Source: a virus (lineage: Duplodnaviria > Heunggongvirae > Uroviricota > Caudoviricetes). From it: a stretch of 17,256 nt of DNA. This document shows, piece after piece, positions 1-16,386 of the stretch. Below the pieces are notes generated by a model that saw nothing but the letters and a program-made list of their open reading frames with translations, ran no database searches and had not been told where the DNA came from. Within the stretch, counting starts at the first letter, position 1; each line of letters begins with the position of its first letter. The stretch spans positions 1 through 17,256 of the IMG/VR virus record IMGVR_UViG_2698536348_000007. One strand, 5' to 3'. Both the position numbers and the translations under genes were made by a program.

Positions 1-2
1 GG

Positions 3-629
3 GGAAAAACGAGTATTTTTAGTCATCCTGTTTACCTCTTTCTCAGGAAGTTTAGTCTCCAGGATTCCCGGGGCGGTTCAGGTCGTTTCATTGAGGAAAA
101 ACACTTCTTCAAACTTGAAGGTGAAACTTTACGTGAGTTCAAGCACAGAGTAGCTTTTAACTACTCTGTGAAAATTGCCCGTAACGTTCGCTCCCTCATC
201 CTCTGGACAGAACGAGGCGCAGCCCGTCACGCCAAAATGCTAGAAACCGATCAGGCGTGGGATGTGTTCGAAAAACTGGAAGACTGCTATTTCAGCCAGT
301 GCGAGAAAAATACTGGCAAACAAGAGAAGAAGCCCAACGGGCTTTCCGCAAAAGAAACAGACAGCCTTGTATGGCTGTGGGATTATGCCAACCGCTCACA
401 GGCATTGTTCCGTGAGTTGTATCCCGCATTAAAACTGATTCAGTCTGGCTATTCCGGCATATGCCACGACTACGGCTATGAGTTCTCGTATATCATCGGG
501 AGGGCGAGGGGCGTTTTAATTAATCACACGCGGGATATAGATATTTATGAGCCTGACGGGCCGACGAACCTTCTGGCATGGGAAAGGCTTAAGAACAAAG
601 AGTTGCCGCCTTCACTGCATCGCTACTGA
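3..629 (+). CDS. 5'-truncated phage early-region protein of unknown function (possibly antirepressor-like); start codon lies upstream of the window
   Basis: Reading frame is open from the window edge (no in-frame stop from position 3 to the TAC-TGA at 627-629). The first in-frame start codon in the window is GTG at 168 and has no Shine-Dalgarno, so the real start is probably upstream. A strong intrinsic terminator follows. Confidence 0.45.
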
Positions 630-646
630 CAATTGACAACTTAACA

Positions 647-670
647 AACCCAGCTTCGGCTGGGTTTTTT
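647..670 (+). terminator. Rho-independent terminator after the first ORF
   Basis: Hairpin aacccagc-ttcg-gctgggtt followed by a T-run (664-670), 18 nt after the stop codon. Confidence 0.6.
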
Positions 671-697
671 ATTGCTGAATTTTCAATATGAGAGGAC

Positions 698-1426
698 ATG
701 ACAATGAATGAGCTGATAAATAGCAGCATCATCAAAATGACCAGCATTGAAATCGCTGAGTTGGTGGGGAGTCGTCCAGATAACGTAAAAATATCAATAG
801 AGCGCCTGGCTGAATCTGGAGTTATTCAACTTCCTGCATTGCAGGTTTTCGAAAAAATCAATAACTTAGGACTGCGCCGTAGTGTCGAGGCTTACGTCTT
901 CGAAGGCGAACAAGGTAAGCGAGACAGCATTATTGTCGTCGCCCAATTGTCGCCGGAATTCACCGCTCGTCTTGTTGACCGTTGGCGAGAGCTTGAAGGG
1001 GCAACCGCGAAAATACCACAAACCTTTTCTGAGGCATTGCGCCTTGCGGCCGACCTTGAAGACCAGAAGGCTGAACTGGAGAAACAGCTTGCTCTCGCAG
1101 CACCTAAAGTTGAGTTTGCCGATCGAGTTGGCGAGGCCAGCGGAATTTTGATTGGAAACTTTGCAAAGGTTGTTGGTATTGGTCCAAACAAACTGTTTGC
1201 GTGGATGCGCGATCACAAAATCCTTATTGCTTCAGGTTCCCGGCGCAATGTGCCAATGCAGGAATATATGGATCGCGGCTATTTCACAGTGAAAGAAACA
1301 GCGGTCAATACAAATCACGGAATACAGATCTCGTTCACCACAAAAATCACCGGGCGTGGTCAACAGTGGCTGACCAGAAAGCCGCTCGATAACGGAATGC
1401 TGAAAGTAACAGGGGAGGCTGCTTAA
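698..1426 (+). CDS. roi: Roi-like phage DNA-binding/antirepressor protein with C-terminal KilAC (ANT) domain
   Basis: 242-aa ORF. The C-terminal segment FAKVVGIGPNKLFAWMRDHKIL...YMDRGYFTVKE...TTKITGRGQQWL matches the KilAC/ANT antirepressor domain as I recall it; position upstream of ybcO-rusA-Q fits Roi of HK022/H-19B-type phages. The ATG at 704 has better spacing to the AGAGGA Shine-Dalgarno than the ATG at 698, so the true start may be 704. Confidence 0.8.
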   Translation: MTMNELINSSIIKMTSIEIAELVGSRPDNVKISIERLAESGVIQLPALQVFEKINNLGLRRSVEAYVFEGEQGKRDSIIVVAQLSPEFTARLVDRWRELEGATAKIPQTFSEALRLAADLEDQKAELEKQLALAAPKVEFADRVGEASGILIGNFAKVVGIGPNKLFAWMRDHKILIASGSRRNVPMQEYMDRGYFTVKETAVNTNHGIQISFTTKITGRGQQWLTRKPLDNGMLKVTGEAA

Positions 1427-1716
1427 TGGCTAACCTACGCAAAGAAGCGCGCGGCAGAGAATGCCAGGTACGGATTTACGGCGTATGCAATGGCAATCCT
1501 GAAACGACAGTTCTGGCACATTACCGGATGGCTGGAATTTGCGGAACGGGAATGAAGCCTGACGACCTGATCGGTGCATGGGCTTGTAGTGACTGCCACG
1601 CGGAGATCGACCGACGCACCCGAATTCTCGACAACAACGACGCCAGACTTTACCACCTGGAAGGCGTGATCAGGACGCAGGCGATATTGCTGAAGGAGGG
1701 GAAGATTAAGTCATGA
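1426..1716 (+). CDS. ybcO: YbcO-like DUF1364 protein (putative nuclease) of the nin region
   Basis: 96-aa ORF, Cys/His-rich (CQVRIYGVCNG...CSDCHAEID), resembles DLP12 YbcO from memory. Start overlaps the roi stop (TAATG) and is preceded by AGGGGAGG. Confidence 0.75.
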   Translation: MANLRKEARGRECQVRIYGVCNGNPETTVLAHYRMAGICGTGMKPDDLIGAWACSDCHAEIDRRTRILDNNDARLYHLEGVIRTQAILLKEGKIKS

Positions 1717-2075
1717 ATGAATATGAGTTTGTGCTTCCCTGGCCGCCGACGGTGAATACCTACTGGCGAAGACGGGGAAGCCAGTACTACATCAGCGATA
1801 AAGGCCAGAAATACCGAAAAGACGTACAGCAAATCATCCGGCAACTCAGATTAGACATTTTCACTAAATCACGACTTCGCATCACAATTATTGCTGAACC
1901 ACCAGATTCCCGCCGTCGCGACCTCGATAACATCCTGAAAGGTTTACTCGACTCTCTTATCCACGCCGGATTTGCGGAAGACGACGAGCAATTCGATGAC
2001 ATTCGCGTAATTCGCGGCGTGAAAGTGCCTGGCGGTAGAGTGGGGATAAAAATCACCGAACTGGAGAACATTTGA
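1713..2075 (+). CDS. rusA: Holliday junction resolvase RusA
   Basis: 120-aa ORF with hallmark RusA motifs (LPWPPTVNTYW..., RRRDLDNILKGLLDSL). Strong Shine-Dalgarno GAAGGAGGGG upstream; start overlaps the ybcO stop (ATGA). Confidence 0.9.
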   Translation: MNEYEFVLPWPPTVNTYWRRRGSQYYISDKGQKYRKDVQQIIRQLRLDIFTKSRLRITIIAEPPDSRRRDLDNILKGLLDSLIHAGFAEDDEQFDDIRVIRGVKVPGGRVGIKITELENI

Positions 2076-2269
2076 TGAATGCTAAAATTCAAACGATACC
2101 TGAATTACTGATCTGCACCAGGGGAAATCAGACAGAAGTCGCCAGAATACTGAACTGCAATCGTGCTACAGTCAGAAAATACATTGATGATAAAGATGCG
2201 AAAAAGCACGCCGTCGTCAATGGCGTCCTTATGGTTCATCGCGGATGGGGTAAAGATACTGATGCGTGA
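2075..2269 (+). CDS. ninH: NinH-like small DNA-binding protein
   Basis: Strong resemblance to lambda NinH ([38 protein letters not shown]). The ORF track starts at TTG 2072; the ATG at 2075 overlaps the rusA stop (TGATG) and is the more likely start. Confidence 0.8.
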
Positions 2270-2696
2270 TATCCGGCAGGTTCTTGAGCGCTGGGGGGCA
2301 TGGGCGGTAAATAACTATGAGGATGTTACATGGTCGCCCATTGCTGCCGGATTTAAGGGACTGATCCCCGAAAAAGTAAAATCACGTCCACAGTGCTGTG
2401 ACGATGATGCGATGGTGATATGCGGGTGCATAGCCCGCCTTTACCGGAACAATCGCGATCTGCATGACTTGCTGGTTGATTACTACGTGTTGGGGGAGAC
2501 GTTCATGGCGCTGGCACGGAAACATGGGTGCTCTGACACCTGTATAGGTAAACGCCTTCACAAAGCGGAGGGGATTGTTGAAGGCATGCTGATGATGCTG
2601 GGAGTGAGGCTTGAGATGGATCGGTATGTTGAGCGTGAATTGCCGGGAGGGAGAAGCTCTGTATTTTATCAGCGAAAAAATAGTTTACGATCGTAA
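2262..2696 (+). CDS. Q: Late-gene antitermination protein Q (phage 21/82 QuuD-like family)
   Basis: From the ATG at 2262 the product ([25 protein letters not shown]...[16 protein letters not shown]...) matches Q/QuuD-type antiterminators from memory. The upstream extension of the track ORF (2163) overlaps ninH and is rejected. Position immediately before the late promoter/lysis region fits. Confidence 0.85.
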
Positions 2697-2720
2697 AAAT
2701 CTGCATATCATGATAAGAGT
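2684..2720 (+). promoter_or_regulatory. Candidate late promoter PR' / Q-utilisation region at the end of Q
   Basis: -35-like TTTACG (2684-2689), about 16-bp spacer, -10-like TATCAT (2706-2711), with a second -10-like GATAAG just downstream. In lambdoid phages PR' sits directly after Q. Hexamer matches are weak, so the exact placement is uncertain. Confidence 0.3.
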
Positions 2721-2741
2721 GGTTACATTGCCACGCAGCCG

Positions 2742-2766
2742 AACCCGCCGATGCGCGGGTTTTTTT
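2742..2766 (+). terminator. Intrinsic terminator 45-70 nt downstream of Q (candidate tR' or Q-gene terminator)
   Basis: GC stem cccgc/gcggg (2744-2748 / 2755-2759) followed by T7 (2760-2766). Confidence 0.5.
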
Positions 2767-2946
2767 GTACCCAGAATCCTGTGAGCTATACGGAAAGTAC
2801 ACAGAAAGGAAGGTACGACCGCAATTAATAACAAAATCTTAAAAATCTCATATGGCACTATTAGTTTTCTAAATATTGTATATTTTAAGTATTGCAGGAT
2901 AACCCTGTAACGAAGTTTGCGTAACAGCATTTTGCTCTACGAGTTT

Positions 2947-2976
2947 GCCAGCCTCCCCTGGTGGCTGGCTTTTTTT
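2947..2976 (+). terminator. Intrinsic terminator (alternative tR' candidate)
   Basis: 7-bp stem gccagcc/ggctggc (2947-2953 / 2963-2969), 9-nt loop, followed by T7 (2970-2976). Confidence 0.55.
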
Positions 2977-3094
2977 GTATCCGTTCAACGGGAATGTTAC
3001 ATACCTCACAATTAAGTCAGTTGAATGTTGTCTGCCCGGATGAGAATTTGTTAGAAAAAACTGCATGGTGAATCCCCCTGAGCGGAGGGGCGAC

Positions 3095-3120
3095 TGGTGA
3101 CGGTATAATCTCTGATTATC
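3095..3120 (+). promoter_or_regulatory. Promoter-like element: consensus -10 TATAAT (3104-3109) with a downstream -10-like repeat GATTAT (3114-3119)
   Basis: Perfect TATAAT hexamer in a non-coding interval; upstream A-tract (3054-3060); -35 is poor. A -10-like repeat just downstream is the architecture of sigma70 promoter-proximal pause sites used by Q antiterminators. Confidence 0.3.
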
Positions 3121-3208
3121 AAAACGAGAATGACGCGGGTTTAGTGGCACCGGGCTGAACTCACCGGGAGGCACCCGGCACCATGCAATGGCACATAGCG
3201 CCACTCTC

Positions 3209-3234
3209 CAGCCCCTCTCCGGAGGGGCTTTCTT
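3209..3234 (+). terminator. Intrinsic terminator-like hairpin closing a candidate ~115-nt small transcript
   Basis: Perfect 7-bp stem gcccctc/gaggggc (3211-3217 / 3222-3228) with tetraloop tccg, followed by tttctt. Confidence 0.45.
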
Positions 3235-3240
3235 ATGGAC

Positions 3241-3268
3241 AAAAAAGCCCGCGCTGGGAGACGCGGGC
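3241..3268 (-). terminator. Minus-strand intrinsic terminator convergent with the previous hairpin
   Basis: On the + strand: A6 (3241-3246) then 7-bp stem gcccgcg/cgcgggc (3247-3253 / 3262-3268). Read on the - strand this is a hairpin followed by U6. Confidence 0.4.
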
Positions 3269-3461
3269 GGCAAGGAATGAACAATGAAACGTGAAGTAAT
3301 ATTTCAGCTGGCGAATAATACCCCATAGTAATCACTCTGCGCAACTGCGCGACCTTTTTCGAATTGCGGGCTGTAGTCTCCCTTCTGCCATTGTCCTGTA
3401 ACTTCCGGACTTCAGCCCGCTCCTTATTTTACTCACAATATTATCCCGGCCGGGAGGATTC

Positions 3462-5372
3462 ATGGCATTTAAACACTATGATGTTGTCAGGGCGGCGTCG
3501 CCGTCAGACCTTGCGAAACGAATAACTCAAAAACTGAAGGAAGGGTGGCAGCCTTATGGTAGTGCGCTGATTTCGACAGCTGGTTATGGTGCGGAGTTCA
3601 TCCAGCCAGTTGTGAGTGAGGGGAGCATCTCATCACCAGAGGAGCCAGGCAACCGTCCGACGACCTCAGCGCCTTCTGTTGCGCCAGAATATTACTATGT
3701 GATCGCGCTTGCTGGTCAGTCCAATGGTATGTCATACGGTGAGGGACTGCCATTACCGGATACATTCGACAGCCCTGATCCACGTATTAAACAGTTAGCG
3801 CGTCGCAGTACGGTGACACCGGGCGGTGCAGCATGCAAATATAACGACATCATTCCGGCGGACCATTGTCTGCATGATGTGCAGGACATGAGCCGTCTTA
3901 ACCATCCGAAAGCGGACCTGTCAAAGGGGCAGTACGGAACCGTGGGGCAGGGGCTGCATATCGCCAAAAAACTGCTGCCGTTTATACCGGCGAATGCGGG
4001 CATTCTGCTGGTTCCGTGCTGTCGTGGTGGTTCAGCGTTCACCACCGGAGCTGATGGCACATACAGTGACGCGAGTGGCGCCTCGGAGAATTCAACCCGC
4101 TGGGGTGTGGACAAGCCGCTGTATAAGGACCTTATCGGTCGAACAAAAGCGGCACTGGAGAAGAACCCGAAAAATGTGCTGTTTGCCGTGGTGTGGATGC
4201 AGGGGGAATTTGATTTTGGCGGTACGCCGGCAAATCATGCCGCACAGTTTGGTGCGCTGGTTGATAAATTCCGTGCAGACCTGGCGGATATGGCAGGCCA
4301 GTGCGTCGGTGGCTCTGCTGGCGGTGTTCCCTGGATATGCGGGGACACGACGTATTTCTGGAAGCAGAAGAACGAATCCACGTACCAGACGGTGTACGGC
4401 AGCTATAAAAATAAAACGGAAAAGAATATCCATTTCGTACCGTTCATGACCGATGAGAACGGGGTGAATGTGCCGACGAACAAACCGGAAGAAGACCCGG
4501 ACATTCCGGGTATCGGTTATTACGGTTCGAAATGGCGTGACAGCTCAGCCACCTGGACGTCACAGGACAGGGCGAGCCATTTCAGTTCATGGGCTCGCCG
4601 TGGGATTATTTCCGACCGTCTGGCAACGGCGATTCTGAGCTGCGCGGGTAAGTCTTCTGCGTTTGTTAATGGTACTGCCGGGGTGGTTGTTCCAGACAGA
4701 CCGGTTACCACCTCAGAGTCTGTAATTTTTTACGATGCCAAAAAAGCTACAGACAATCAGCTGAAACCCTATGGCTGGGACGGTGTGTATGGCAGGCGCA
4801 CACTGGTTGATGACAGCGGCAATAAAGCTCTGCGAATTGAGAAAAATAACAGCGCGAAATCCTGGTCAATGTACTGTGATATTGCTGCAGACAAGGCAAA
4901 ACTTTTACTGGAAAAAGGCGGGGAAATTGCTGTCCGGTTTAAAATCCCCGAAAACGTCAATCTTGAGACAACCAGAAACAAGTATGCCTTTGGTTTGTAC
5001 TGGCGAATAGCGGAATGGCCGGGTGAGGGTGGTGAAGGCCATCTGAGTTCTTTCTTTGTCCAGACAGATAAAGCCAGTATTAATGTTGCATACCATCATA
5101 CAGTTAATCAACAAAAAGAACTTGGCACGTTTGGCGCATTCGACCATGACTGGCATACGCTTGCATTTAAATTTAAGGGCAGTAACAGCATTAATGTTAC
5201 TCCGGTGCTTGATGGTGTGGATGGACAGGCGTTTGACCTGGTGAAATGGGCCAATACTGCTAATGGACTCAACAGGTTTGTCATTACGGATATTACAGGT
5301 AGTGCAGAAACCTACCCTGTACTTATTGATACGGTGGAAGTTAAAGCAAACAAAGCTGGAGCAGCCGCATAA
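3462..5372 (+). CDS. nanS-p: NanS-p-type prophage sialate (9-O-acetyl-N-acetylneuraminate) esterase, YjhS-like; N-terminal DUF1737-like domain plus SASA/SGNH esterase domain
   Basis: 636-aa ORF with GGAGG Shine-Dalgarno 6 nt upstream. N-terminus MAFKHYDVVRAASPSDLAKRITQKLKEGWQPYG and the ALAGQSNGMSYGEG...VVWMQGEFD esterase core match the nanS-p/yjhS family found downstream of stx in Stx phages, from memory. Sits in the Q-to-holin moron locus. Confidence 0.85.
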   Translation: MAFKHYDVVRAASPSDLAKRITQKLKEGWQPYGSALISTAGYGAEFIQPVVSEGSISSPEEPGNRPTTSAPSVAPEYYYVIALAGQSNGMSYGEGLPLPDTFDSPDPRIKQLARRSTVTPGGAACKYNDIIPADHCLHDVQDMSRLNHPKADLSKGQYGTVGQGLHIAKKLLPFIPANAGILLVPCCRGGSAFTTGADGTYSDASGASENSTRWGVDKPLYKDLIGRTKAALEKNPKNVLFAVVWMQGEFDFGGTPANHAAQFGALVDKFRADLADMAGQCVGGSAGGVPWICGDTTYFWKQKNESTYQTVYGSYKNKTEKNIHFVPFMTDENGVNVPTNKPEEDPDIPGIGYYGSKWRDSSATWTSQDRASHFSSWARRGIISDRLATAILSCAGKSSAFVNGTAGVVVPDRPVTTSESVIFYDAKKATDNQLKPYGWDGVYGRRTLVDDSGNKALRIEKNNSAKSWSMYCDIAADKAKLLLEKGGEIAVRFKIPENVNLETTRNKYAFGLYWRIAEWPGEGGEGHLSSFFVQTDKASINVAYHHTVNQQKELGTFGAFDHDWHTLAFKFKGSNSINVTPVLDGVDGQAFDLVKWANTANGLNRFVITDITGSAETYPVLIDTVEVKANKAGAAA

Positions 5373-5377
5373 TTGCT

Positions 5378-5414
5378 AAAAAAAGCCGCCAGCGGCAGGA
5401 ATGGAAGCTGGCGG
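5378..5414 (-). terminator. Minus-strand intrinsic terminator directly after the nanS-p stop
   Basis: + strand: A7 (5378-5384) then 8-bp stem ccgccagc/gctggcgg (5386-5393 / 5407-5414) with a 13-nt loop. No T-run follows on the + strand, so it works as a terminator only for leftward transcription (it may still stabilise the 3' end of nanS-p mRNA). Confidence 0.4.
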
Positions 5415-5511
5415 AGGTAATCCCAATGGAGAATGTAAAGAAAAGATGCTTTCGTACATTGGTTTTTTAAATGAAAACAATTCTCATTGTCAACCATAAC
5501 GGTAAGAAATT

Positions 5512-5694
5512 ATGACATTTATTCATCAGGTGATGCTGTACTTCTGTACGGCGGTCTGTGTGCTGTATCTTCTTTCGGGTGGGTACAGGGCTGTGCGCGA
5601 TTTCTGGTGCAGGCAGATTGATAAAAGGGCCGCTGAGAAAATCAGCGCCAGTCAGTCAGCCGGAAGCAAACCCGAAGAACCCGTTACTCCTTAA
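5512..5694 (+). CDS. Hypothetical small membrane protein (60 aa; one predicted transmembrane helix followed by a charged tail)
   Basis: ORF MTFIHQVMLYFCTAVCVLYLLSGG... Weak Shine-Dalgarno. A 14-codon upstream ORF (5471-5515, MKTILIVNHNGKKL) ends with a TGA overlapping this ATG (ATGA). A promoter-like TTGTCA (5487-5492) lies just upstream. Coding status is uncertain. Confidence 0.3.
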   Translation: MTFIHQVMLYFCTAVCVLYLLSGGYRAVRDFWCRQIDKRAAEKISASQSAGSKPEEPVTP

Positions 5695-5719
5695 CAACCC
5701 CTTTCAGCGAGAAAATCCC

Positions 5720-5965
5720 ATGTCAGAAATCACATCCCTGGTCACTGCAGAGGCAGTGAAGGAAGTCCTGCGCTCTGAAGAAGTCCGGAGCGCACTGAAA
5801 CAGAAACTTCGCCAGAATCTTGAGTCGCGTCTTGATGCAGAAGTGGATGCCATTCTGGATGAGCTGCTGGGCGTAGCAGCGGTTCCTGAGCCGGAAGGTA
5901 TCGCGGGTGACGGGAGTGCTTCAGATGGCGGTGAACCTACACCTGACAGCGACATGATGATGTAA
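5720..5965 (+). CDS. Hypothetical acidic protein (82 aa) upstream of the holin
   Basis: [54 protein letters not shown]... has protein-like helical composition and an acidic C-terminus. Weak GAGA Shine-Dalgarno. The antisense ORF 5704-5955 is low-complexity and rejected. Confidence 0.4.
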
Positions 5966-6041
5966 GCATGCGCAAGGGACCATCGGTGTGTGCCGGTGGT
6001 CTTTATATTGTTGTGAGCTTCCGGATTGCGGGAGACGGGGT

Positions 6042-6257
6042 ATGTACCAGATGGAAAAAATCACAACAGGTGTGTCATACACCACGTCAGCGGTGGGAAC
6101 GGGCTACTGGTTCCTGCAGTTGCTGGACAGGGTTTCCCCGTCTCAGTGGGCGGCAATAGGCGTGCTGGGGAGTCTGCTGTTTGGGCTGCTGACGTACCTG
6201 ACTAACCTGTATTTCAAAATCAAAGAGGACCGGCGTAAGGCGGCGCGGGGAGAGTAA
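6042..6257 (+). CDS. S: Class II holin/antiholin, S21-type (pinholin-like) with dual start motif
   Basis: From the ATG at 6042 the product [71 protein letters not shown] closely resembles phage 21 S (from memory). Two in-frame starts (M1 and M4 at 6051) are typical of holin/antiholin pairs. GGGAGACGGGG Shine-Dalgarno upstream. The longer track ORF from 5988 is rejected. Confidence 0.85.
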
Positions 6258-6261
6258 GCTG

Positions 6262-6795
6262 ATGAGCAGGAAATTCCGCTATGGTTTATCAGCGGTCGTT
6301 CTGGCGCTGATTGCTGCGGGCGCTTCTGCGCCTGAAATCCTCGACCAGTTTCTTGACGAAAAAGAAGGTAACCACACCACGGCATACCGTGATGGTGCGG
6401 GTATCTGGACTATCTGCCGCGGTGCCATCCTGGTGGATGGCAAACCTGTCGTTCCGGGCATGAAGTTGTCGAAGGAAAAATGCGACCGGGTTAACGCCAT
6501 TGAGCGTGATAAGGCGCTGGCATGGGTGGAGAAAAACATCAGAGTGCCACTGACCGAACCGCAGAAAGCGGGCATCGCGTCATTCTGTCCGTACAACATC
6601 GGGCCTTCGAAATGCTTCACCTCAACGTTTTACCGGAAACTGAACGCAGGAGACCGGAAAGGTGCATGTGCTGAAATCCGCCGATGGATATATGACGGCG
6701 GCAGGGACTGTCGGAACCGCTCAAATAACTGTTACGGGCAGGTATCGCGGCGTGACCAGGAGAGCGCGCTGGCGTGCTGGAGTATCGACAGATAA
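6262..6795 (+). CDS. R: SAR endolysin (R21-type, T4-lysozyme-like muramidase, GH24)
   Basis: 177-aa ORF with a Gly/Ala-rich N-terminal signal-anchor-release segment (YGLSAVVLALIAAGASAPE) and catalytic signature EGNHTTAYRDGAGIWTICRG (E...D...T). Immediately follows the holin; GGGGAGAG Shine-Dalgarno. Confidence 0.9.
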   Translation: MSRKFRYGLSAVVLALIAAGASAPEILDQFLDEKEGNHTTAYRDGAGIWTICRGAILVDGKPVVPGMKLSKEKCDRVNAIERDKALAWVEKNIRVPLTEPQKAGIASFCPYNIGPSKCFTSTFYRKLNAGDRKGACAEIRRWIYDGGRDCRNRSNNCYGQVSRRDQESALACWSIDR

Positions 6796-6879
6796 GCAGA
6801 ATATTCTGCTGAAAAATGCCGTTGACCAACGCGAACGGATAACACGAAATCCTGCGAACTGGCAAAATTTAAGTGAGTA

Positions 6880-6926
6880 AAAGTAAAAACCCCGTTTGTT
6901 GGCAGCAAGCGGGGTTTTGTGTTTCT
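6880..6926. terminator. Bidirectional intrinsic terminator between endolysin and Rz
   Basis: 9-bp stem ccccgtttg/caagcgggg (6890-6898 / 6906-6914, one G-U pair) with 7-nt loop, flanked by an A-rich tract upstream (6880-6889) and a T-rich tract downstream (6915-6926). Confidence 0.5.
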
Positions 6927-7015
6927 GACCTTGAATAAGGCAAGGGAGAAATTATGGGTAGGGAGGTTCTTTCCCTGTGAGGAAGTATAAAAGATTCTTT
7001 CTGAGGTTGTCCATT

Positions 7016-7129
7016 ATGAAAGGCATTGAGGTGGAGACGCCAGCAAGTCTGGATTTAACAAGAGCGGCAGCTTTTGCCATTCGTATTGTGGCAATTGCTG
7101 TTCTGGTCTGGGCAATCCGTTGGTGGTGA
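7016..7129 (+). CDS. Hypothetical 37-aa C-terminally membrane-anchored peptide, translationally coupled to Rz
   Basis: ORF MKGIEVETPASLDLTRAAAFAIRIVAIAVLVWAIRWW, not in the supplied track (below 60 aa). GAGG 8 nt upstream of the ATG. Its TGA (7127-7129) is 1 nt before the Rz ATG (7131). Coding status unproven. Confidence 0.3.
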   Translation: MKGIEVETPASLDLTRAAAFAIRIVAIAVLVWAIRWW

Positions 7130-7130
7130 T

Positions 7131-7589
7131 ATGAATCGTGTGCTGTATGGCGTGCTTATTGTCCTGCTGCTTGGTTGTGGATCGCTGTGGCTGGCAACAG
7201 ACCATTACCGTGATAACGCCATCACCTACAAAGAGCAGCGAGATGATGCGAAGACAAAACTCAGCCAGGCGAACGCCACCATTGCTGACATACAGCAGCG
7301 CCAGCGTGATGTTGCTGCACTCGATGCCAGATACACCAGGGAGCTTGCTGATGCTAACGCGACTATTGAAAGTCTCCGTGCTGATGTTTCTGCTGGGCGT
7401 AAGCGCCTGCAAGTCGCCGCCACCTGTGCAAAGTCAACGACCGGAGCCAGCGGCATGGGCGATGGAGAAAGCTCAGGACTTACAGCAGATGCTGAACTCA
7501 ATTATTACCGTCTCCGAAGTGGAATCGACAAGATAACCGCGCAGGTTAACTACCTGCAGGAGTACATCAGGATGCAATGCCTCGATTAA
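7131..7589 (+). CDS. Rz: Rz i-spanin (inner-membrane spanin subunit)
   Basis: From the ATG at 7131: MNRVLYGVLIVLLLGCGSLWLATDHYRDNAITYKEQRDDAK...RDVAALDARYTRELADA closely parallels lambda Rz (N-terminal TM helix, then HYRDNAITYK). The track ORF start at 7074 is an upstream extension without support. Confidence 0.85.
   Translation: MNRVLYGVLIVLLLGCGSLWLATDHYRDNAITYKEQRDDAKTKLSQANATIADIQQRQRDVAALDARYTRELADANATIESLRADVSAGRKRLQVAATCAKSTTGASGMGDGESSGLTADAELNYYRLRSGIDKITAQVNYLQEYIRMQCLD
7351..7536 (+). CDS. Rz1: Rz1 o-spanin lipoprotein, embedded in the +1 frame of Rz
   Basis: ATG at 7351 with GGGAG 8 nt upstream. Product MLTRLLKVSVLMFLLGVSACKSPPPVQSQRPEPAAWAMEKAQ... has a lipoprotein signal peptide, lipobox-like VSAC and the proline-rich mature region typical of Rz1. 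Entirely inside Rz, as in lambda. Confidence 0.7.
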   Translation: MLTRLLKVSVLMFLLGVSACKSPPPVQSQRPEPAAWAMEKAQDLQQMLNSIITVSEVESTR

Positions 7590-7593
7590 CAGA

Positions 7594-7618
7594 GCCAGCT
7601 CAATCGCTGGCCTTTTTT
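7594..7618 (+). terminator. Intrinsic terminator after Rz/Rz1
   Basis: Stem gccagc/gctggc (7594-7599 / 7606-7611) with 6-nt loop, followed by T6 (7613-7618). Confidence 0.6.
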
Positions 7619-7669
7619 ATGAGGAGAGATATAACCTGAATCAATGCCAGTGCATTATCAACAAATGGA

Positions 7670-8251
7670 TCACTGGGTAAGCTCGTTTGGTTTTAAATGT
7701 CCGTCGAGAATCAGATTGTGATTTTCCCGATGCAGAACCAGTGTGCCCATATAATCAGGTTTAAATCTCCATCCATTCATTTTTTTTGCAATTCTGGACA
7801 GACAGTGATTATGTGTGAAAATCACAGTAACATGATCTGATTTTGATATTTTAAGGATATTATTTACTGCGTTATCATCACATGTCGATATGTCCGGAAT
7901 AGTTGCTGTCTTACCTCCCGAAAAAAAAGTGGCTGTCTGCATTGTTCGGAGTGTGTCTGTAGAATAGAGACTGTAGTATGGAAACATTCTTCTGAATTTA
8001 TCTCCATATTGTTGAGCTTTGTTAGCTCCGTTTACTGTGATTCCCTCATGTGCTGAAAGACATATTCTTTGGGAGCGATCGCATCTTTCCCCATGCCGGA
8101 TGAGAAAAATAATGGGATGTTTCTGGTTAATCTCAGTGACATCGTTCACATCAAGTCTGACTGGAGTTCTTACAATGTATATGATGGATACAGAAACGAT
8201 TATGACAAGTAAAAATATAAGAAGAGATTTTGTTAGCGTTTGATTTAACAT
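7670..8251 (-). CDS. Ais/PmrG-family lipopolysaccharide core heptose(II)-phosphate phosphatase homologue (histidine-phosphatase superfamily) with N-terminal signal/anchor; prophage cargo gene
   Basis: Minus-strand ORF. Motifs IRHGERCDRS (RHG catalytic motif), GITV.G, LYSTDTLRT.QTA, IFTHNHCL and FKPDY align with E. coli Ais as I recall it. Hydrophobic N-terminus LLIFLLVIIVSVSIIYIV. The start at 8251 (MLNQTL..., AAGGGA Shine-Dalgarno 7 nt upstream) is preferred over the track start at 8284. Opposite orientation to the flanking phage genes, in the position lambda uses for bor. Confidence 0.75.
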   Translation of the reverse strand: MLNQTLTKSLLIFLLVIIVSVSIIYIVRTPVRLDVNDVTEINQKHPIIFLIRHGERCDRSQRICLSAHEGITVNGANKAQQYGDKFRRMFPYYSLYSTDTLRTMQTATFFSGGKTATIPDISTCDDNAVNNILKISKSDHVTVIFTHNHCLSRIAKKMNGWRFKPDYMGTLVLHRENHNLILDGHLKPNELTQ

Positions 8252-8305
8252 ATAAATTCCCTTGTCTGTGTTGAAAATGGGCATTATTATGCGTAAATCT
8301 TATGT

Positions 8306-8319
8306 AATCCTTAAGGATT
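8306..8319. promoter_or_regulatory. Perfect 14-bp palindrome AATCCTTAAGGATT in the promoter region of the Ais-like gene
   Basis: Exactly self-complementary, 22-35 bp upstream of the first in-frame ATG (8284) of the minus-strand gene, next to a CATAAT -10-like hexamer. Contains CTTAAG half-sites reminiscent of PmrA/BasR boxes (CTTAAT-like), which regulate chromosomal ais. Confidence 0.3.
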
Positions 8320-8853
8320 GTCTGACGTGGTGATATGACGCGAAATACAGTGGGTACACAGAATGCTGTGAACAACGACGAAATGGGCATTGGTAGCGGT
8401 ACTGGTGCTTTTTTTATTGGTTGGTTGCTCAAGTCTTGATAAAGCGCGTTAGCTTTTTGGTATTGCCTCTTAGGTCTGTAAAATTGCCGACGGTGTCCGG
8501 CAGTGCATGCAGGGCTGATCGTCTATGAGAACAGAATATATTGCTAAAAATGAAGTGTGCGTCAATGCTTATAAAGCATGCAATTCTGTATTTCTAACTA
8601 TTCAATAAAATAAATTCTTTCTGTCGCAGTGAATATACAAATGTTGATCAGCGCTCGATGTGGCGACGGGTTTCTATATCAGGAGACTTTGGCATTTATC
8701 CGCGAGGCAGCCTATCTGGTGCTGTAGTGGAATGAAGCGGATATAACCTAAATAAGGTTAAACATTAATCAGACATGGCTCTGCTGTGTGAAATCTGAAA
8801 ATTTACAGCAGTCATTGTGCATCAGTTTTTAACAGAGAACGTCAGAAGGTGAC

Positions 8854-9669
8854 ATGGCAAAGCTGGACTGGAAAAAGCTGGAGCAGGCATTTCGACGCGA
8901 ACATGTCAAAACCGGCATAAAGCTTCAGGACTGGTGCCGTCAGAACAATATCAGTTATGACACGGCTCGGCGGTACATTAAACTGCGCAAACACTCCCCC
9001 AGAAATACAGAGAAAAGTGCGCAGAAAAATGCGCAAATTGATGATCAAAAAAGTGCGCAGAAATCTGACGGCAACTCCAGTCATGACGAGCCTTCAGGCG
9101 ATGATGGTTGTGATGAAAAATGCGCAAATTTGGCAGAAACGAAACGGACTCGTGGTTCCAGACTTTTGCCACCTTCAAATGCTTTTTCTCAGCGTAACAC
9201 CCACGCCGTCAGACACCGTGGATACGCGAAGTATCTCGAGGCAGATAACCTCATAGATGATGCAGTCGGAATGGAACTTGCCGATGAACTGGTGTTTACC
9301 CGGGCCCGCGCACTTTCAGTAACAGGAACACTGAAAAAAATGTTCGCCGACCTGAAAGAGGCGGCTGACGTGGAAACCCGCGTTGCTCTGTACGACAAAA
9401 TACTCAAAGCTGAACAGGCTCTTGACCGGAATATTGCCCGTATCGAGTCAATTGAACGCTCATTGCTGACGCTGGACGTTCTGGCTGAAACAGCACCAAA
9501 ACTTCGTGCTGACCGGGAAAGAACCAACGCTGCCAGAGATAAACTCAGAGCGGAAACCGATATTCTGACCAGCCAGCGTCGGGGCGTTGTTACGCCTGTC
9601 AGTGACATCGTGTCATCGCTGCATGAAATGAGTAATTCGGGGAGACTGGATGACATTCCGGAAGAATGA
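8854..9669 (+). CDS. Terminase small subunit (putative)
   Basis: 271-aa ORF immediately upstream of, and overlapping, the large terminase. N-terminal HTH-like segment (KLQDWCRQNNISYDTARRYIK) and coiled-coil C-terminus are typical of small terminases. Assigned mainly by synteny. Confidence 0.65.
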   Translation: MAKLDWKKLEQAFRREHVKTGIKLQDWCRQNNISYDTARRYIKLRKHSPRNTEKSAQKNAQIDDQKSAQKSDGNSSHDEPSGDDGCDEKCANLAETKRTRGSRLLPPSNAFSQRNTHAVRHRGYAKYLEADNLIDDAVGMELADELVFTRARALSVTGTLKKMFADLKEAADVETRVALYDKILKAEQALDRNIARIESIERSLLTLDVLAETAPKLRADRERTNAARDKLRAETDILTSQRRGVVTPVSDIVSSLHEMSNSGRLDDIPEE

Positions 9670-11356
9670 ACCGCGATGTGATGAACCGTCAGAAATGACA
9701 GAGGCCGAACAACGTCTGTTCATCATGACTAAACTGAGCAATCCCTGGTGGCGGCTCAATCATCTCTACAAGATACAGAACGAAAAAGGTGAGCTGGTCA
9801 CCTTCAGAATGCGACCGGCGCAGCGCCAGTTGTTCCGGAGCATGCACAATAAAAATATTATCCTGAAAGCACGCCAGCTGGGGTTTTCCACGGCCATTGA
9901 TATTTATCTTCTCGACCAGGCATTATTCATACCGCATCTCAAATGCGGGATTGTCGCTCAGGATAAACAGGCTGCCAGTGAAATTTTCCGCACCAAAATT
10001 GCTGTACCGTTCGATCATCTTCCTGACTGGCTGAGAGCCTCATTCACCATCGTTGAACGTCGTAGCGGAGCCAGCGGTGGCTATATCCTGTTTGGGCACG
10101 GCTCGAGTATCCAGGTGGCAACCTCATTCCGTTCAGGTACGGTGCAGCGCCTGCATATCTCAGAGCACGGCAAAATTTGCGCAAAATATCCGGCTAAGGC
10201 GAAAGAGCTGCGAACCGGTACACTTAATGCCGTCTCTGATGAGTGCATTATTTTTGATGAATCCACTGCTGAAGGTGTGGGTGGTGATTTTTACGAGATG
10301 AGTAACCGGGCACAGGAAATCACTGCATCAGGGCTGGCGCTGACGCCACAGGATTATAAATTCCATTTTTACGCCTGGTGGCAGGATCTCAAATACAGCG
10401 CCAGAGTGCCGGAAAGCGGACTTAAGCTGTCACGGGAAAAAACAGCGTATTTTTCTGCGGTTGAAAAAGCAATGAACATCACGCTTACCGATGAGCAGAA
10501 ACACTGGTACATCTGCAAGGAAACTGAACAGCGTGAGGAAATGAAGCAGGAGTTTCCCTCAACACCACAGGAGGCGTTTCTGACGTCCGGACGACGGGTG
10601 TTCAGTGCGGAAAGCACGCTGCAGGCAGAGTCATTCTGTTCGCCACCGCTGATTGTTTATGACATTGAACCGGTTACAGGAACGAAGACCAAAGCGCAGT
10701 CTCTGCGTGACGGGAATAAAGCCGAACAGCACCGGACGCTGATGAATTATCTGCTGGTCTGGGAGCTACCGGATCCGGATGAAGAGTATGTATGCGGAGC
10801 GGATACCGCTGAGGGGCTGGAGCACGGAGACCGCTCATCGCTGGATATCATCAGATGTAGTAATGGTGAGCAGGTAGCCCACTGGTTTGGTCATCTCGAT
10901 GCGGAGCTTTTCGCTCATCTCATTGCGCAGGTCTGCCGTATGTACAACAACGCGTTTGTGGGGCCGGAGCGTAACAATCACGGACATGCCGTTATCCTGA
11001 AACTCCGGGAACTCTATCCGACGCGTTATATCTACAACGAACAGCACCTTGACCAGGCATATGACGACGATACGCCCCGTCTTGGCTGGCTGACAACCCG
11101 CCAGAGTAAACCGGTCCTGACTGAGGGAATGAAAACGCTGCTGAATAACGGCCTGTCGGGGATCCGCTGGACGGGCACATTATCAGAAATGAACACCTAC
11201 GTTTATGACGCGAAAGGCTCCATGAATGCACAGGAAGGCTGTTTTGATGATCAGCTTATGAGCTACATGATTGCCCAGGAGATGCGCGCCAGAATGCCGG
11301 TGAGGGTAAGACAGAAAACGGATAAACGCAGAACCACACACTGGATGGCTCACTGA
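9650..11356 (+). CDS. Terminase large subunit
   Basis: 568-aa ORF with GGGGAG Shine-Dalgarno 5 nt upstream of the ATG at 9650, overlapping the end of the small-subunit gene. Followed directly by the portal (stop/start overlap TGATG). Alternative starts at 9695 and 9725 cannot be excluded. Confidence 0.8.
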   Translation: MTFRKNEPRCDEPSEMTEAEQRLFIMTKLSNPWWRLNHLYKIQNEKGELVTFRMRPAQRQLFRSMHNKNIILKARQLGFSTAIDIYLLDQALFIPHLKCGIVAQDKQAASEIFRTKIAVPFDHLPDWLRASFTIVERRSGASGGYILFGHGSSIQVATSFRSGTVQRLHISEHGKICAKYPAKAKELRTGTLNAVSDECIIFDESTAEGVGGDFYEMSNRAQEITASGLALTPQDYKFHFYAWWQDLKYSARVPESGLKLSREKTAYFSAVEKAMNITLTDEQKHWYICKETEQREEMKQEFPSTPQEAFLTSGRRVFSAESTLQAESFCSPPLIVYDIEPVTGTKTKAQSLRDGNKAEQHRTLMNYLLVWELPDPDEEYVCGADTAEGLEHGDRSSLDIIRCSNGEQVAHWFGHLDAELFAHLIAQVCRMYNNAFVGPERNNHGHAVILKLRELYPTRYIYNEQHLDQAYDDDTPRLGWLTTRQSKPVLTEGMKTLLNNGLSGIRWTGTLSEMNTYVYDAKGSMNAQEGCFDDQLMSYMIAQEMRARMPVRVRQKTDKRRTTHWMAH

Positions 11357-13500
11357 TGAAAAATGAAACTAATACCATGGCGACGAAAAACGACAACGGA
11401 GCCACGCCGCGTTTTTCTCAGCGCCAGTTACAGGCGCTTTGTTCTGATATTGACAGTCAGCCTAAATGGCGCGATGCCGCAAACAAGGCCTGTGCGTATT
11501 ACGATGGTGACCAGTTGCCACCAGAAGTTCTTCAGGTACTGAAAGATCGCGGTCAGCCGATGACCATCCATAACCTCATCGCGCCTACCGTTGATGGTGT
11601 TCTGGGTATGGAGGCCAAAACGCGGACTGATCTGGTGGTGATGTCAGACGAGCCAGATGATGAAACTGAAAAACTGGCTGAAGCTATTAATGCTGAATTT
11701 GCCGATGCATGCCGCCTTGGCAATATGAATAAAGCCCGCTCTGATGCCTATGCGGAACAAATCAAGGCGGGGCTCAGCTGGGTGGAGGTCAGACGGAACA
11801 GCGATCCGTTCGGGCCTGAGTTTAAGGTGTCTACTGTCAGCCGGAATGAAGTGTTCTGGGACTGGCTCAGCCGGGAAGCTGATTTAAGTGACTGCCGCTG
11901 GCTGATGCGCCGCCGCTGGATGGATACCGATGAGGCAAAAGCCACATTCCCGGGAATGGCTCAGGTTATCGATTATGCCATTGATGACTGGCGTGGTTTT
12001 GTCGATACCACGGTTACTGAAGGCCAGCCCAGTCCGTTGATGAGTGCATGGGAAGAGTATCAGTCATGGGATCGTAAGGAGAACGAATGGCTTCAGCGTG
12101 AACGCCGTCGTGTGCTGCTTCAGGTGGTTTATTACCGTACATTCGAGCGTCTTCCGGTGATTGAACTCAGTAATGGACGGGTGGTGGCCTTTGATAAAAA
12201 TAATCTGATGCATGCGGTGGCTGTGGCATCCGGGCGGGTGCAGGTGAGAGTCGGGCGGGTAAGTCGTATTCGTGAAGCCTGGTTTGTGGGACCGCACTTT
12301 ATTGTGGATCGCCCCTGCAGTGCGCCGCAGGGGATGTTCCCGCTGGTTCCCTTCTGGGGATACCGGAAGGATAAAACCGGGGAGCCTTACGGGCTGATTT
12401 CCCGGGCCATTCCGGCACAGGATGAGGTGAATTTTCGTCGTATAAAACTGACGTGGTTGCTTCAGGCCAAACGCGTGATTATGGACGAGGATGCCACCCA
12501 GTTGTCAGACAACGAGCTGATGGAGCAGATCGAGCGTCCGGATGGCATTATTAAACTGAATCCGGCCCGAAAAAATCAGAAAAGCGTTGCTGATGTTTTC
12601 CGGGTTGAACAGGATTTTCAGGTTGCCAGCCAGCAGTTTCAGGTCATGCAGGAGTCGGAAAAACTTATCCAGGACACGATGGGGGTTTATTCCGCATTTC
12701 TCGGGCAGGATTCAAATGCATCGTCCGGCGTGGCGATCAGCAACCTGGTGGAGCAGGGAGCCACAACCCTTGCCGAAATCAACGATAACTACCAGTTTGC
12801 CTGCCAGCAGGTGGGAAGGCTGTTGCTCGCTTATCTTCTCGATGGCCTGAAAAAGCGGCGTAATCATGCGGTGGTGATTAATCGTGATGATCGCCAGCGT
12901 CGCCAGACCATTGTTCTCAATGCTGAAGGTGATAATGGTGAACTGACCAATGATATTTCAAGGTTAAATACACATATTGCGCTGGCTCCTGTTCAGCAGA
13001 CACCGGCGTTTAAGGCACAGCTTGCACAGCGAATGTCAGAGGTTATTCAGGGGCTGCCACCTCAGGTGCAGGCCGTCGTGCTCGACCTGTGGGTTAACCT
13101 TCTGGATGTGCCGCAGAAACAGGAATTTGTCGAACGTATTCGTGCGGCGCTGGGGACACCAAAATCACCGGATGAGATGACCCCGGAAGAGCAGCAGGCC
13201 GCTCAGCAGCAACAGGCCCAGGAGCAGCAACAACAGGAACTGCAGATGCGCGAAATGGCAGGCCGGGTGGCTAAACTGGAAGCAGAAGCTGCCAGGGCAC
13301 AGGCAGCTGCGCAACGGGATAATGCTGGCGCACAACGGGATGTCGCCGCGGCACAGGGACAGCGTTATGTGGATGCGCTCAACCAGGCGCATACGGCAGA
13401 AATCATTACCGGCATACAGAATATGGAACAGGAGCAGGAAGCTCTTCAGCAACAGATGCTACATACACTACAACAGCGGATGCATGAATTGCCGCTATGA
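11356..13500 (+). CDS. Portal protein (P22-like, with C-terminal Gln/Ala-rich helical extension)
   Basis: 714-aa ORF following terminase. Size and C-terminal coiled-coil (EEQQAAQQQQAQEQQQQELQMREMAGRVAKLEAEAARAQAAAQ) resemble the P22 gp1 portal barrel; synteny terminase-portal-scaffold-coat. Confidence 0.8.
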   Translation: MKNETNTMATKNDNGATPRFSQRQLQALCSDIDSQPKWRDAANKACAYYDGDQLPPEVLQVLKDRGQPMTIHNLIAPTVDGVLGMEAKTRTDLVVMSDEPDDETEKLAEAINAEFADACRLGNMNKARSDAYAEQIKAGLSWVEVRRNSDPFGPEFKVSTVSRNEVFWDWLSREADLSDCRWLMRRRWMDTDEAKATFPGMAQVIDYAIDDWRGFVDTTVTEGQPSPLMSAWEEYQSWDRKENEWLQRERRRVLLQVVYYRTFERLPVIELSNGRVVAFDKNNLMHAVAVASGRVQVRVGRVSRIREAWFVGPHFIVDRPCSAPQGMFPLVPFWGYRKDKTGEPYGLISRAIPAQDEVNFRRIKLTWLLQAKRVIMDEDATQLSDNELMEQIERPDGIIKLNPARKNQKSVADVFRVEQDFQVASQQFQVMQESEKLIQDTMGVYSAFLGQDSNASSGVAISNLVEQGATTLAEINDNYQFACQQVGRLLLAYLLDGLKKRRNHAVVINRDDRQRRQTIVLNAEGDNGELTNDISRLNTHIALAPVQQTPAFKAQLAQRMSEVIQGLPPQVQAVVLDLWVNLLDVPQKQEFVERIRAALGTPKSPDEMTPEEQQAAQQQQAQEQQQQELQMREMAGRVAKLEAEAARAQAAAQRDNAGAQRDVAAAQGQRYVDALNQAHTAEIITGIQNMEQEQEALQQQMLHTLQQRMHELPL

Positions 13501-13520
13501 ATATCCTGAACTTAACGGAA

Positions 13521-13544
13521 CCCCGTCATCGTACGGGGTTTTTT
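13521..13544 (+). terminator. Intrinsic terminator/attenuator between portal and scaffold genes
   Basis: 6-bp stem ccccgt/acgggg (13521-13526 / 13533-13538) with 6-nt loop, then T6 (13539-13544), 21 nt after the portal stop. Confidence 0.5.
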
Positions 13545-13657
13545 GTCTCCGGAGATAAGCGTTCCGGGAGCGGTGCGCTTATTCGCGGGGGCAGCGATAA
13601 GCCTTATTTACTCAACCATTCGGATCTGTCCGATAAACAGACCATGCGGAGTTATTT

Positions 13658-14665
13658 ATGGATTTTGAATTTACGGGTGAAGAAACCCCGGAACAACTGG
13701 AAAAAATGCTGGAAGGGCTTGGAGATGTGGATATTGACGGTCACGAACAGGACGGCGTGACAGAGGCCGCCACAGAAAATCATGCGGATGAGGCAGCACA
13801 GACACAGACGGGCGATAACACTGCGGCACCGACGCCGGATGCCAGTGCTGAGCAGACGCAGGACGTGAAGGAGCCGGAGGCGAAGGGTGTGCTCACCCGC
13901 GATGGTAAACACGTCATTCCCTATGAAGTCCTTGAGGCTGAACGTTCCGGTAAGCAGCGGGCCGAACAGGAAGCCGCACTTCTTCGGGGACAGATAGCCG
14001 AAGAAAAACGCCTGGTTGAACTGCTGACGTCTCAGATCCACCAGGCCGGTATGAAACCCGCACCGTTACCGGAAAACGAAAAAATCTCTGATGAGAAGAT
14101 TGCCCGTATCAGGGAGATGTATCCGGAAATTGGCGACGCGGTGGCTTCGCTTATCCGTAAAAATAACTATCTCCAGTCCCGTGTTCAGCAATCAGCACAG
14201 CAGGCAGAAGGTCATGGTGGTGAGGATTTATCACCGGTTCTTGATGCAATGAATGACGTGCCGGTGCTGAAAACGTGGCAGAACTCCGATCCGGATCGCT
14301 TCTCGGTTGCCGTATCCATCGACGGGAAGCTCCAGAATGACCCCGCATGGAAAGACAAACCGCTCACTGAACGTTTCGCCGAAGTGGCCCGCCGTACGCA
14401 GCTCGCTTTCGGTGAAGCCAGTGAGCCGCCTTCTGATGACAAGGCAGACAACACGGATATCCGGAAAACGGCGGAAGAAAAAGTGAAAGCCGCTGAACGG
14501 GAGATGGCAGTGCCTGCTTCCCCGTCAGAGCTTGGCAACACGGCTTCCGTCGGAACCGGTGATAATTTTGAACGGTTACTTGGTGCTTCTCATTCAGAGG
14601 CAGAGGCGATTATGCGCGGTATGACGAATGCTGAAATAGACGCGCTTCTGGAGAAGCTCGGGTAA
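13658..14665 (+). CDS. Scaffolding protein (putative)
   Basis: 335-aa highly acidic, helix/coiled-coil-type ORF between portal and major capsid genes; GCGGAG Shine-Dalgarno 6 nt upstream. Assigned by composition and synteny. Confidence 0.65.
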   Translation: MDFEFTGEETPEQLEKMLEGLGDVDIDGHEQDGVTEAATENHADEAAQTQTGDNTAAPTPDASAEQTQDVKEPEAKGVLTRDGKHVIPYEVLEAERSGKQRAEQEAALLRGQIAEEKRLVELLTSQIHQAGMKPAPLPENEKISDEKIARIREMYPEIGDAVASLIRKNNYLQSRVQQSAQQAEGHGGEDLSPVLDAMNDVPVLKTWQNSDPDRFSVAVSIDGKLQNDPAWKDKPLTERFAEVARRTQLAFGEASEPPSDDKADNTDIRKTAEEKVKAAEREMAVPASPSELGNTASVGTGDNFERLLGASHSEAEAIMRGMTNAEIDALLEKLG

Positions 14666-14688
14666 CTTACTGAAGGAGAACTGAAGTA

Positions 14689-15903: not shown

Positions 15904-15919
15904 TTTTTCCTTTCCTCAT

Positions 15920-15942
15920 GCCGGGTTATCGCCCGGCTTTTT
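15920..15942 (+). terminator. Intrinsic terminator after the major capsid gene
   Basis: Stem gccggg/cccggc (15920-15925 / 15932-15937) followed by T5 (15938-15942). Confidence 0.6.
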
Positions 15943-15957
15943 CAGGAGTCATTAATT

Positions 15958-16350: not shown

Positions 16351-16363
16351 TATAAACCTTCCG

Positions 16364-16386
16364 GCCCGCGTCATGCGGGCTTTTTT
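16364..16386 (+). terminator. Intrinsic terminator after the 130-aa head-module gene
   Basis: Stem gcccgc/gcgggc (16364-16369 / 16375-16380) followed by T6 (16381-16386). Confidence 0.6.

Follow-up and report, generated by a model that had tools for sequence, protein, structure and literature searches.

Positions 3063-3236 on the plus strand of the window, the 17,256-nt stretch of Caudoviricetes DNA analyzed here (IMG/VR record IMGVR_UViG_2698536348_000007, positions 1 to 17,256), very probably hold a prophage copy of the STnc100-family small RNA (sRNA), that is, a modular and by prediction Hfq-dependent, trans-acting RNA, with or without a longer isoform from ~3010. The Rfam covariance model of STnc100 (RF02076) matched window positions 3035-3240 (+) with 165.1 bits against a gathering score of 47 (E = 8e-38). 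The match was full-length, spanning model positions 1-206 of 206, and was the single one in the whole window at gathering thresholds; the E value places the flagged region, as an RNA gene, far beyond chance. The original prediction had marked 3095-3235 as a candidate sRNA of ~115 nt or, alternatively, a displaced late promoter unit. Judged by sequence, this interval covers the 3' two-thirds of an sRNA gene that is already catalogued, in the STnc100/EcOnc/PasD family. The call of a discrete sRNA gene was thus right, but the interval was drawn too narrowly, with the conserved unit running from at least 3063, and the Rfam comparison suggested at the time returned a known family. A gene of the STnc100/EcOnc/PasD type is already documented by RF02076 and several papers, and the finding itself is ordinary.

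STnc100 (RF02076) is a Gammaproteobacterial sRNA that is present in multiple copies in Salmonella and E. coli prophages. The 206 bases of the STnc100 stretch were found in 2,509 of 5,426 complete E. coli genomes, in up to 10 places per genome, and one complete E. coli genome, that of FORC_069, was 100% identical to the window over 3035-3240. We profiled 80 loci from viral contigs encoding NanS-p relatives (60-100% identity), and in nearly all of them a family copy occupied the same place upstream of nanS-p. The family alignment comprised 76 copies upstream of nanS-p, 54 of them distinct. The Rfam model and the window copy have in common the closing helix, the 5' hairpin, the two conserved hairpins, and the terminator (Table 1). 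They differ in that the model begins 28 nt before the PasD2-type 5' end, probably taking in promoter DNA, and in an outer 3-bp helix (model positions 14-16) that is absent from the fold of the window copy.

Table 1 Features of the sRNA gene and the flanking region in the window
Feature	Positions	Strand	Basis
PR' (TTTACG-16-TATCAT)	2684-2711	+	933W annotation transfer; only plus-strand promoter call in the scan
qut	2725-2732	+	933W annotation transfer
First hairpin	2744-2766	+	933W annotation transfer
tR' (second terminator)	2947-2975	+	933W annotation transfer
StxS gene, 258 nt	~2718-2975	+	Within the PR'-qut-tR' unit 2684-2975
Conserved upstream block, presumed promoter	2994-3062	+	Alignment; promoter role by inference
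Core sRNA transcript	3063-3236	+	RF02076 match, PasD2 5' end alignment, minimum-free-energy fold
Closing helix, 5' arm GCAUGGUG	3063-3070	+	Pairs with 3179-3186; compensatory changes
5' hairpin CCCCU/AGGGG, 6-nt loop	3075-3090	+	98.4% of cells paired, 25 sequences; RNAalifold agrees
Variable internal arm with TATAAT and GATTAT	3091-3136	+	No consensus pairing; sequence and length highly variable
Conserved hairpin GGGUUUAG / CUGAACUC, variable loop	3137-3162	+	100% of cells paired; three compensated pairs
Near-invariant hairpin CCGGG-AGGCA-CCCGG	3164-3178	+	Alignment, pair counts, RNAalifold
Closing helix, 3' arm CACCAUGC	3179-3186	+	Pair counts, RNAalifold
Variable stretch, presumed seed/target-pairing module	3187-3209	+	At least six unrelated sequence types; PasD seed slot
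Rho-independent terminator, 8-bp stem, UCCG loop, UUCUUAU tail	3210-3236	+	Sequence, terminator scan, fold
Convergent partner sRNA gene (putative)	3241-3433	-	Terminator stem 3268-3247, T-run to 3241

In the 76-copy alignment, the cassette was ordered as a conserved upstream block, a near-invariant 5' part, a variable arm, a conserved part, a variable stretch, and the terminator. The 5' part was almost invariant (GCATGGTGAATCCCCCTG.GCGGAGGGGC), and the second conserved part (GCGGGTTCAG...CTGAACTCACCGGGAGGCACCCGGCACCATGC) lay between the variable arm and the variable seed stretch. RNAalifold, run on 25 representatives, predicted four helices (3063-3070/3179-3186, 3075-3079/3086-3090, 3137-3144/3155-3162, and 3164-3168/3174-3178) and the terminator, with no consensus pairing in the variable arm. 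This independent consensus agreed with the named structure used for the pair counts, in which standard pairs made up 95.4% of cells and seven pairs were changed on both sides. The covariation score was reached by none of 500 shuffles, and controls with the partner slid by 1-3 columns were at most 53% paired. In the closing helix, GCATGATG occurred with CATCATGC and GCATAGTG with CACTATGC, replacing G-C with A-U at two positions; in the hairpin at 3137-3162, GC was replaced by AU in 8 sequences, and AU by GC or UA in 9. The fold of 3063-3236 alone (174 nt) reproduced the family helices, with -71.6 kcal/mol and z = -2.8. In this structure, the 8-bp closing helix encloses the 5' hairpin, the variable arm, and the two conserved hairpins, leaving the seed and terminator outside. 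The sequence elements listed in the original prediction (TATAAT, GATTAT, the GGCACC/CACCGGG repeats at 3146-3183, and the hairpin at 3210-3229) were all present at the coordinates given when 2400-3900 was reread, and the repeats are accounted for by the near-invariant hairpin.

Modules were shuffled among copies, and the seed type of the window was also found behind Sp5-type and PasD-type 5' halves. Across the alignment, the family acts like a cassette whose scaffold is fixed and whose arm, seed, and promoter modules are swappable. In some prophages, nanS-p was preceded by three or four STnc100-family cassettes in tandem (viral contigs L059 and L064, ~1225-2275), and the variable arm and seed differed in each.

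The covarying closing helix needs 3063-3070, and therefore the RNA under selection includes these positions, 46 nt upstream of the start that had been proposed; by this reading the selected RNA begins at or before 3063 and reaches ~3236. Conserved DNA extended from ~2994 to 3236 in the 76-copy alignment, a unit wider than the flagged interval. The 5' end of PasD2 is GCAUGGUG, which aligns to window position 3063. PasD2 is annotated at NC_011601 741157-741328 (172 nt, ends estimated from RNA-seq; Pearl Mizrahi et al. 2021, PMC8550237), and window 3063-3234 has the same length of 172 nt. Northern blots of Sakai relatives gave ~177 nt for EcOnc06, ~187 nt for EcOnc13, ~222 nt for EcOnc04/05, and ~235/247 nt for EcOnc27 (Tree et al.). 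The sizes reported for relatives from Northern blots or RNA-seq thus range from 172 to ~247 nt, with no species of ~115 nt among them, and the proposed length does not hold. Since the sizes of EcOnc04/05/27 (~222-247 nt) fit a start near 3010, a longer isoform of ~222 nt starting there is possible, as are two 5' ends or processing from a longer form. The 5' end, at ~3063 or ~3010, is placed by comparison with relatives of unequal sizes, because the promoter of the family is non-canonical and lacks a sigma-70 scan call.

The conserved upstream block contains a -35-like TTGAAT at 3021-3026, which is TTGACA in most copies, and ATGTTACATA at 2994-3003, which reads ATGTTA(A/C)AT among copies; conservation ends upstream of ~2994. 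Closer to the RNA, the window has TG at 3049-3050, a T, and then TAGAAA at 3052-3057. The corresponding motif TGTT-A(A/G)AAA was found just upstream of GCATGG in 60 of the 76 copies, where TG-T-TA(A/G)AAA sits 5-6 nt before it. The remaining form, TATT-AAAAA, occurred in 16 of 76 copies, those with the PasD-type upstream region. Neither TAGAAA nor TTGAAT of the window was called in the sigma-70 scan. We infer from its geometry that the element at 3049-3057 would act as an extended -10, placing the start at ~3063-3064, and the block 2994-3062 may also encode the 5' leader of longer isoforms.

Positions 2935-2951 of the Sakai Sp5 locus (L002) correspond to window ~3045-3062 and cover the presumed extended -10 and spacer of the STnc100/EcOnc27 promoter. 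Two variants downstream of stx2, T/C at +90 and a T deletion at +103, were tied to HUS outcome by a 2025 machine-learning study (PMC12711010), and both fall in this presumed extended -10 and spacer. The association with HUS is no more than correlative, and both variants are in linkage with the phage backbone.

The original prediction placed the promoter and RNA 5' end at TATAAT (3104-3109), with GATTAT following at 3114-3119, and gave rise to the reading of an independent sRNA of ~115-120 nt (~3116-3234). A weaker form of it takes TATAAT as an internal promoter of this variant only, producing a truncated isoform. The reading is unlikely. The hexamer is a perfect -10 consensus, related TATGAT is found in a further 14 of the 76 copies, and the 121-nt RNA that would start from TATAAT folds well alone (z = -2.76). 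In horizontally acquired DNA, a -10 without other promoter elements can suffice for weak initiation. However, the sigma-70 scan was silent at 3104-3109, and reading the sequence revealed no usable -35 or TG extension, with AGCGGA as the hexamer 17 bp upstream. Of the 76 copies, 7 have TATAAT at the aligned position, 14 have TATGAT, and one has TATGGT; the other 54 aligned hexamers lacked this pattern and were not -10-like. Moreover, TATAAT falls in the unalignable variable arm, downstream of the covarying 5' arm of the closing helix, which the RNA requires, and the sizes of relatives given above include none of this length. TATAAT is thus internal to the RNA and not in front of the RNA gene. 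It may have created an internal promoter in this copy, yielding a ~120-nt 5'-truncated isoform in which the closing helix is missing its 5' arm, but we consider this improbable, and conservation among the 76 copies gives it no support. If it were true, CACCAUGC and the seed region would be freed, and the same gene would provide a variant-specific second regulator.

ATAATC and GATTAT are complementary in the window copy itself. As arms of a conserved hairpin, TATAAT and GATTAT were rejected, since the TATGAT/GATGAT variants put both changes on the same pair and break the pairing.

At the 3' end, the hairpin AGCCCCTC-TCCG-GAGGGGCT at 3210-3229, followed by TTCTTAT, was called by the terminator scan; for 2600-3600, the expectation from shuffles was 1.2 terminator-like sites, and the scan reported 6. 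Its 8-bp stem includes 6 G-C pairs, and the UUCUUAU tail is an interrupted U run. Together with the RF02076 match, this call bears out the proposal of an independent phage sRNA ending at this terminator. The preceding 3187-3209 was mostly single-stranded in the minimum-free-energy fold, with a short local hairpin, and this slot held at least six unrelated sequence types across the family. The PasD seed (the complement of CUCACAGG) maps to the same slot, and 3187-3209 is the presumed seed, or target-pairing module, of the window copy.

PasD1 and PasD2 were discovered in EPEC via RIL-seq and Northern blot, and PasD binds Hfq and is stabilized by it (Pearl Mizrahi et al. 2021, PMC8550237). According to the conclusion of a 2026 preprint, which also noted that PasD2 adjoins a sialic-acid esterase gene, PasD and STnc100 descend from a common ancestor (Zhu, Shabalina and Storz 2026, 10.64898/2026.05.13.724894). 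In PasD1 and PasD2 of EPEC E2348/69, the 5' end reads GCAUGGUGAAUCC as in the window copy, and the 5' hairpin is shared, as is the conserved hairpin, with its compensatory changes; PasD2, like the window copy, sits between Q and the sialic-acid esterase gene. Unlike the window copy, PasD does not have the CCGGG/CCCGG hairpin as such and scores under the Rfam STnc100 gathering score. Its 3' region is longer and U-rich, with the seed CCUUGUGAG, and its terminator and upstream (promoter) block also differ.

The Sakai copy at Sp4 has 98.8% identity to window 3155-3236 and 100% to 3185-3236, the seed and terminator module, whereas the middle part (~3092-3154) differs. Hfq-CRAC peaks were reported for EcOnc06, EcOnc13, EcOnc04/05, and EcOnc27 in E. 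coli O157 Sakai, and the 247-nt form of EcOnc27 was destabilized without Hfq (Tree et al. 2014, PMC4104026). The Sp4 copy is probably EcOnc05, assuming no coordinate offset between genome versions at Sp4; if the coordinates are unchanged, the EcOnc05 Hfq peak at 1179806-1179914 (+) falls on this copy. At Sp5 the genome-version offset is 142 nt, and with it applied, the EcOnc27 Hfq-crosslink peak spans three elements of the Sp5 copy, namely its last conserved hairpin, its seed stretch, and its terminator. EcOnc05 (Sp4) and EcOnc27/sRNA103 (Sp5, downstream of stx2B) resemble the window copy in family, in their position in the moron slot between PR' and nanS-p, and in having a convergent partner sRNA, and in both the Hfq peak lies over the 3' part. 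They differ in their reported sizes (~222 and ~235/247 nt), which exceed the 172-nt core, and EcOnc27 differs in both the variable arm and the seed, the window having no upstream stx or tRNA genes. [quoted passage not shown] The relatives with known Hfq binding and targets carry seeds unlike that of the window copy.

The sRNA and the minus-strand gene ending at 3241 would form a convergent "dyad". In at least eight Sakai prophages, the "moron" slot, from PR' to a conserved phage ORF, has been described as holding two Hfq-bound sRNAs that converge; downstream of stx2B, these are EcOnc27 and AsxR (Tree et al. 2014, PMC4104026). The window has this layout, with PR'/tR' at 2684-2975, the convergent terminator at 3268-3247, and nanS-p beginning at 3462, and the same was found in Sp5 and Sp4. 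The 5' end of the partner would give either a short form of ~70 nt or one of ~190 nt from a promoter-like site (ATGCCA-17-GATAAT, 3468-3440; promoter scan) that overlaps the start of nanS-p. Window 3241-3463 was 94% identical to the partner region of Sp4, where the EcOnc08/21 Hfq peaks lie, and the EcOnc08 peak comes directly after the Sp4 terminator on the opposite strand if coordinates are unchanged between genome versions. The partner terminator was 96.6% identical to an EPEC RIL-seq sRNA candidate (E2348C_1409.E2348C_1408.IGR). AsxR and AgvB, the partners of EcOnc27 and EcOnc06, hold the same dyad position as the minus-strand gene, but neither gave an Rfam match in permissive mode (2650-3470) or a BLAST match in the window, and the partner here resembles EcOnc08/21 of Sp4 and the EPEC intergenic candidate instead. 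The permissive Rfam search of 2650-3470 yielded no additional significant hit; RprA, Qrr, VqmR, and DsrA appeared at 2841-2979 with E = 0.08 to 2.3, mainly driven by the terminator.

Two further observations concern the nanS-p gene. A terminator-like hairpin with a T7 run is located at 5386-5398 (-), right after the nanS-p stop (5372), which is the position of PasA in EPEC (nanS > < holin); the EPEC nanS-holin spacer has no BLAST match in the window. In addition, the sRNA hairpin (CCGGGAGGCACCCGG, 3164-3171) and the nanS-p Shine-Dalgarno region (ccggCCGGGAGGattcATG, 3448-3455) share the 8-mer CCGGGAGG, either by chance or because the sRNA may mimic the nanS-p ribosome-binding site.

The fixed site immediately upstream of nanS-p in nearly all loci, the back-to-back terminators at 3210-3236 (+) and 3268-3241 (-), and a scaffold that stays near-invariant while the seed is swapped could also be read as a mainly cis-acting element. 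The convergent terminators would then be a bidirectional insulator or processing site before nanS-p, and the sRNAs would be by-products. We regard this as very unlikely, since PasD1 lies directly before the holin gene with no esterase gene between, the relatives are present in high amounts, bind Hfq, and have many partners in RIL-seq, and a swappable seed beside a terminator is a hallmark of trans-acting sRNAs.

Slightly less probable still is that the conserved 5' part encodes a leaderless-like peptide, MVNPPERRGDW, with an ATG at 3065 and a stop at 3098-3100. A distance of 2 nt separates the ATG from the PasD2-type 5' end, copies have a "conserved" MVNPP.RRG at the N-terminus, and ribosome footprints were reported on some EDL933 STnc100 copies (Neuhaus et al. 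2017). However, the predicted peptides vary from 8 to 53 aa with unrelated C-termini, no Shine-Dalgarno sequence is present, and the conserved codons coincide with the hairpin stem. One copy has ATA instead of ATG, and the change is compensated on the pairing partner (CACTATGC), which fits RNA pairing and not coding. The small ORF was rejected for its variable length, its lost start codon, and the missing Shine-Dalgarno sequence.

The actual late promoter unit of the prophage lies further upstream (Table 1). Window 2125-2978 was 95.8% identical to phage 933W (~97% over 2670-2975), and PR' and qut were unchanged in the alignment. The start of PR' transcription and tR' have been mapped 258 nt apart, and the product was named StxS (Sy et al. 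2020, PMC7547250). The PR' start from Sakai dRNA-seq transfers exactly to window position 2718, and 2718 + 257 gives 2975. The Q protein is of the PF06530 type, as in 933W, and its gene ends at 2696. The homology to 933W stops at ~2976, beyond which a tRNA promoter, tRNA genes, and stx2 follow in 933W. The tRNA scan found no tRNA genes in the window, which runs directly into the STnc100 cassette, and therefore the tRNA cluster of Stx phages is not what occupies this position. This prophage has neither stx nor tRNA genes, and the sRNA "bookends" that flank stx in Stx phages, StxS on one side and the EcOnc dyad on the other, are neighbors here.

With the 933W-type PR'-qut-tR' unit intact at 2684-2975 right after Q, its start 258 nt from tR' as published for StxS and its Q of the 933W type, the reading of the flagged element as a displaced Q-dependent late promoter unit (PR'-pause-tR'), like lambda 6S RNA or StxS, is refuted at the sequence level and has next to no probability left, its only support being a superficial layout in which a -10 is followed by a -10-like repeat close by and, ~100 nt downstream, by a terminator. 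The GATTAT "pause" element is not conserved, and TATAAT is 408 bp from the Q stop (2696), close to the distance first estimated and not immediately downstream of Q. By analogy, the flagged sRNA would be, like lambda 6S RNA and StxS, a short, terminated, Hfq-binding phage transcript of the late region. Those RNAs differ in locus and sequence and depend on PR' and Q, whereas the flagged element lies beyond tR' with its own upstream block.

For the STnc100-family sRNA, the most likely function is that of an Hfq-dependent trans-acting regulator that combines a conserved scaffold with a swappable seed and has a convergent minus-strand sRNA as its partner. In the lysogen it would be made from its own promoter just upstream, for which the extended -10-like TGTTAGAAA at 3049-3057 is a candidate, and tR' at 2947-2975 would stop PR' transcripts before they reach the gene. 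Hfq would bind via the seed and terminator region, and in trans the variable seed would base-pair with mRNAs of the host or the phage. Upon induction, RNA polymerase modified by Q would read through the sRNA terminator, and nanS-p and the lysis genes would be expressed. The lysogen promoter, Hfq binding, trans-action, and Q readthrough are extrapolated here from the relatives.

Very little of this adds to what had been published. Rfam lists the family, its members have been detected in EHEC and EPEC with Hfq-CRAC, RIL-seq, and Northern blots, and the 2026 preprint surveyed the family; an sRNA dyad located between late promoter and lysis genes, the relation of STnc100 to PasD, and the link to the esterase gene have likewise been described. 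The useful outcome is a corrected anatomy of the locus, in which the RNA starts at or before 3063, TATAAT is internal, and the true StxS unit lies at 2684-2975. Of modest interest is that a stx-negative, tRNA-less prophage keeps both of the stx-flanking sRNA "bookends", StxS and the EcOnc dyad.
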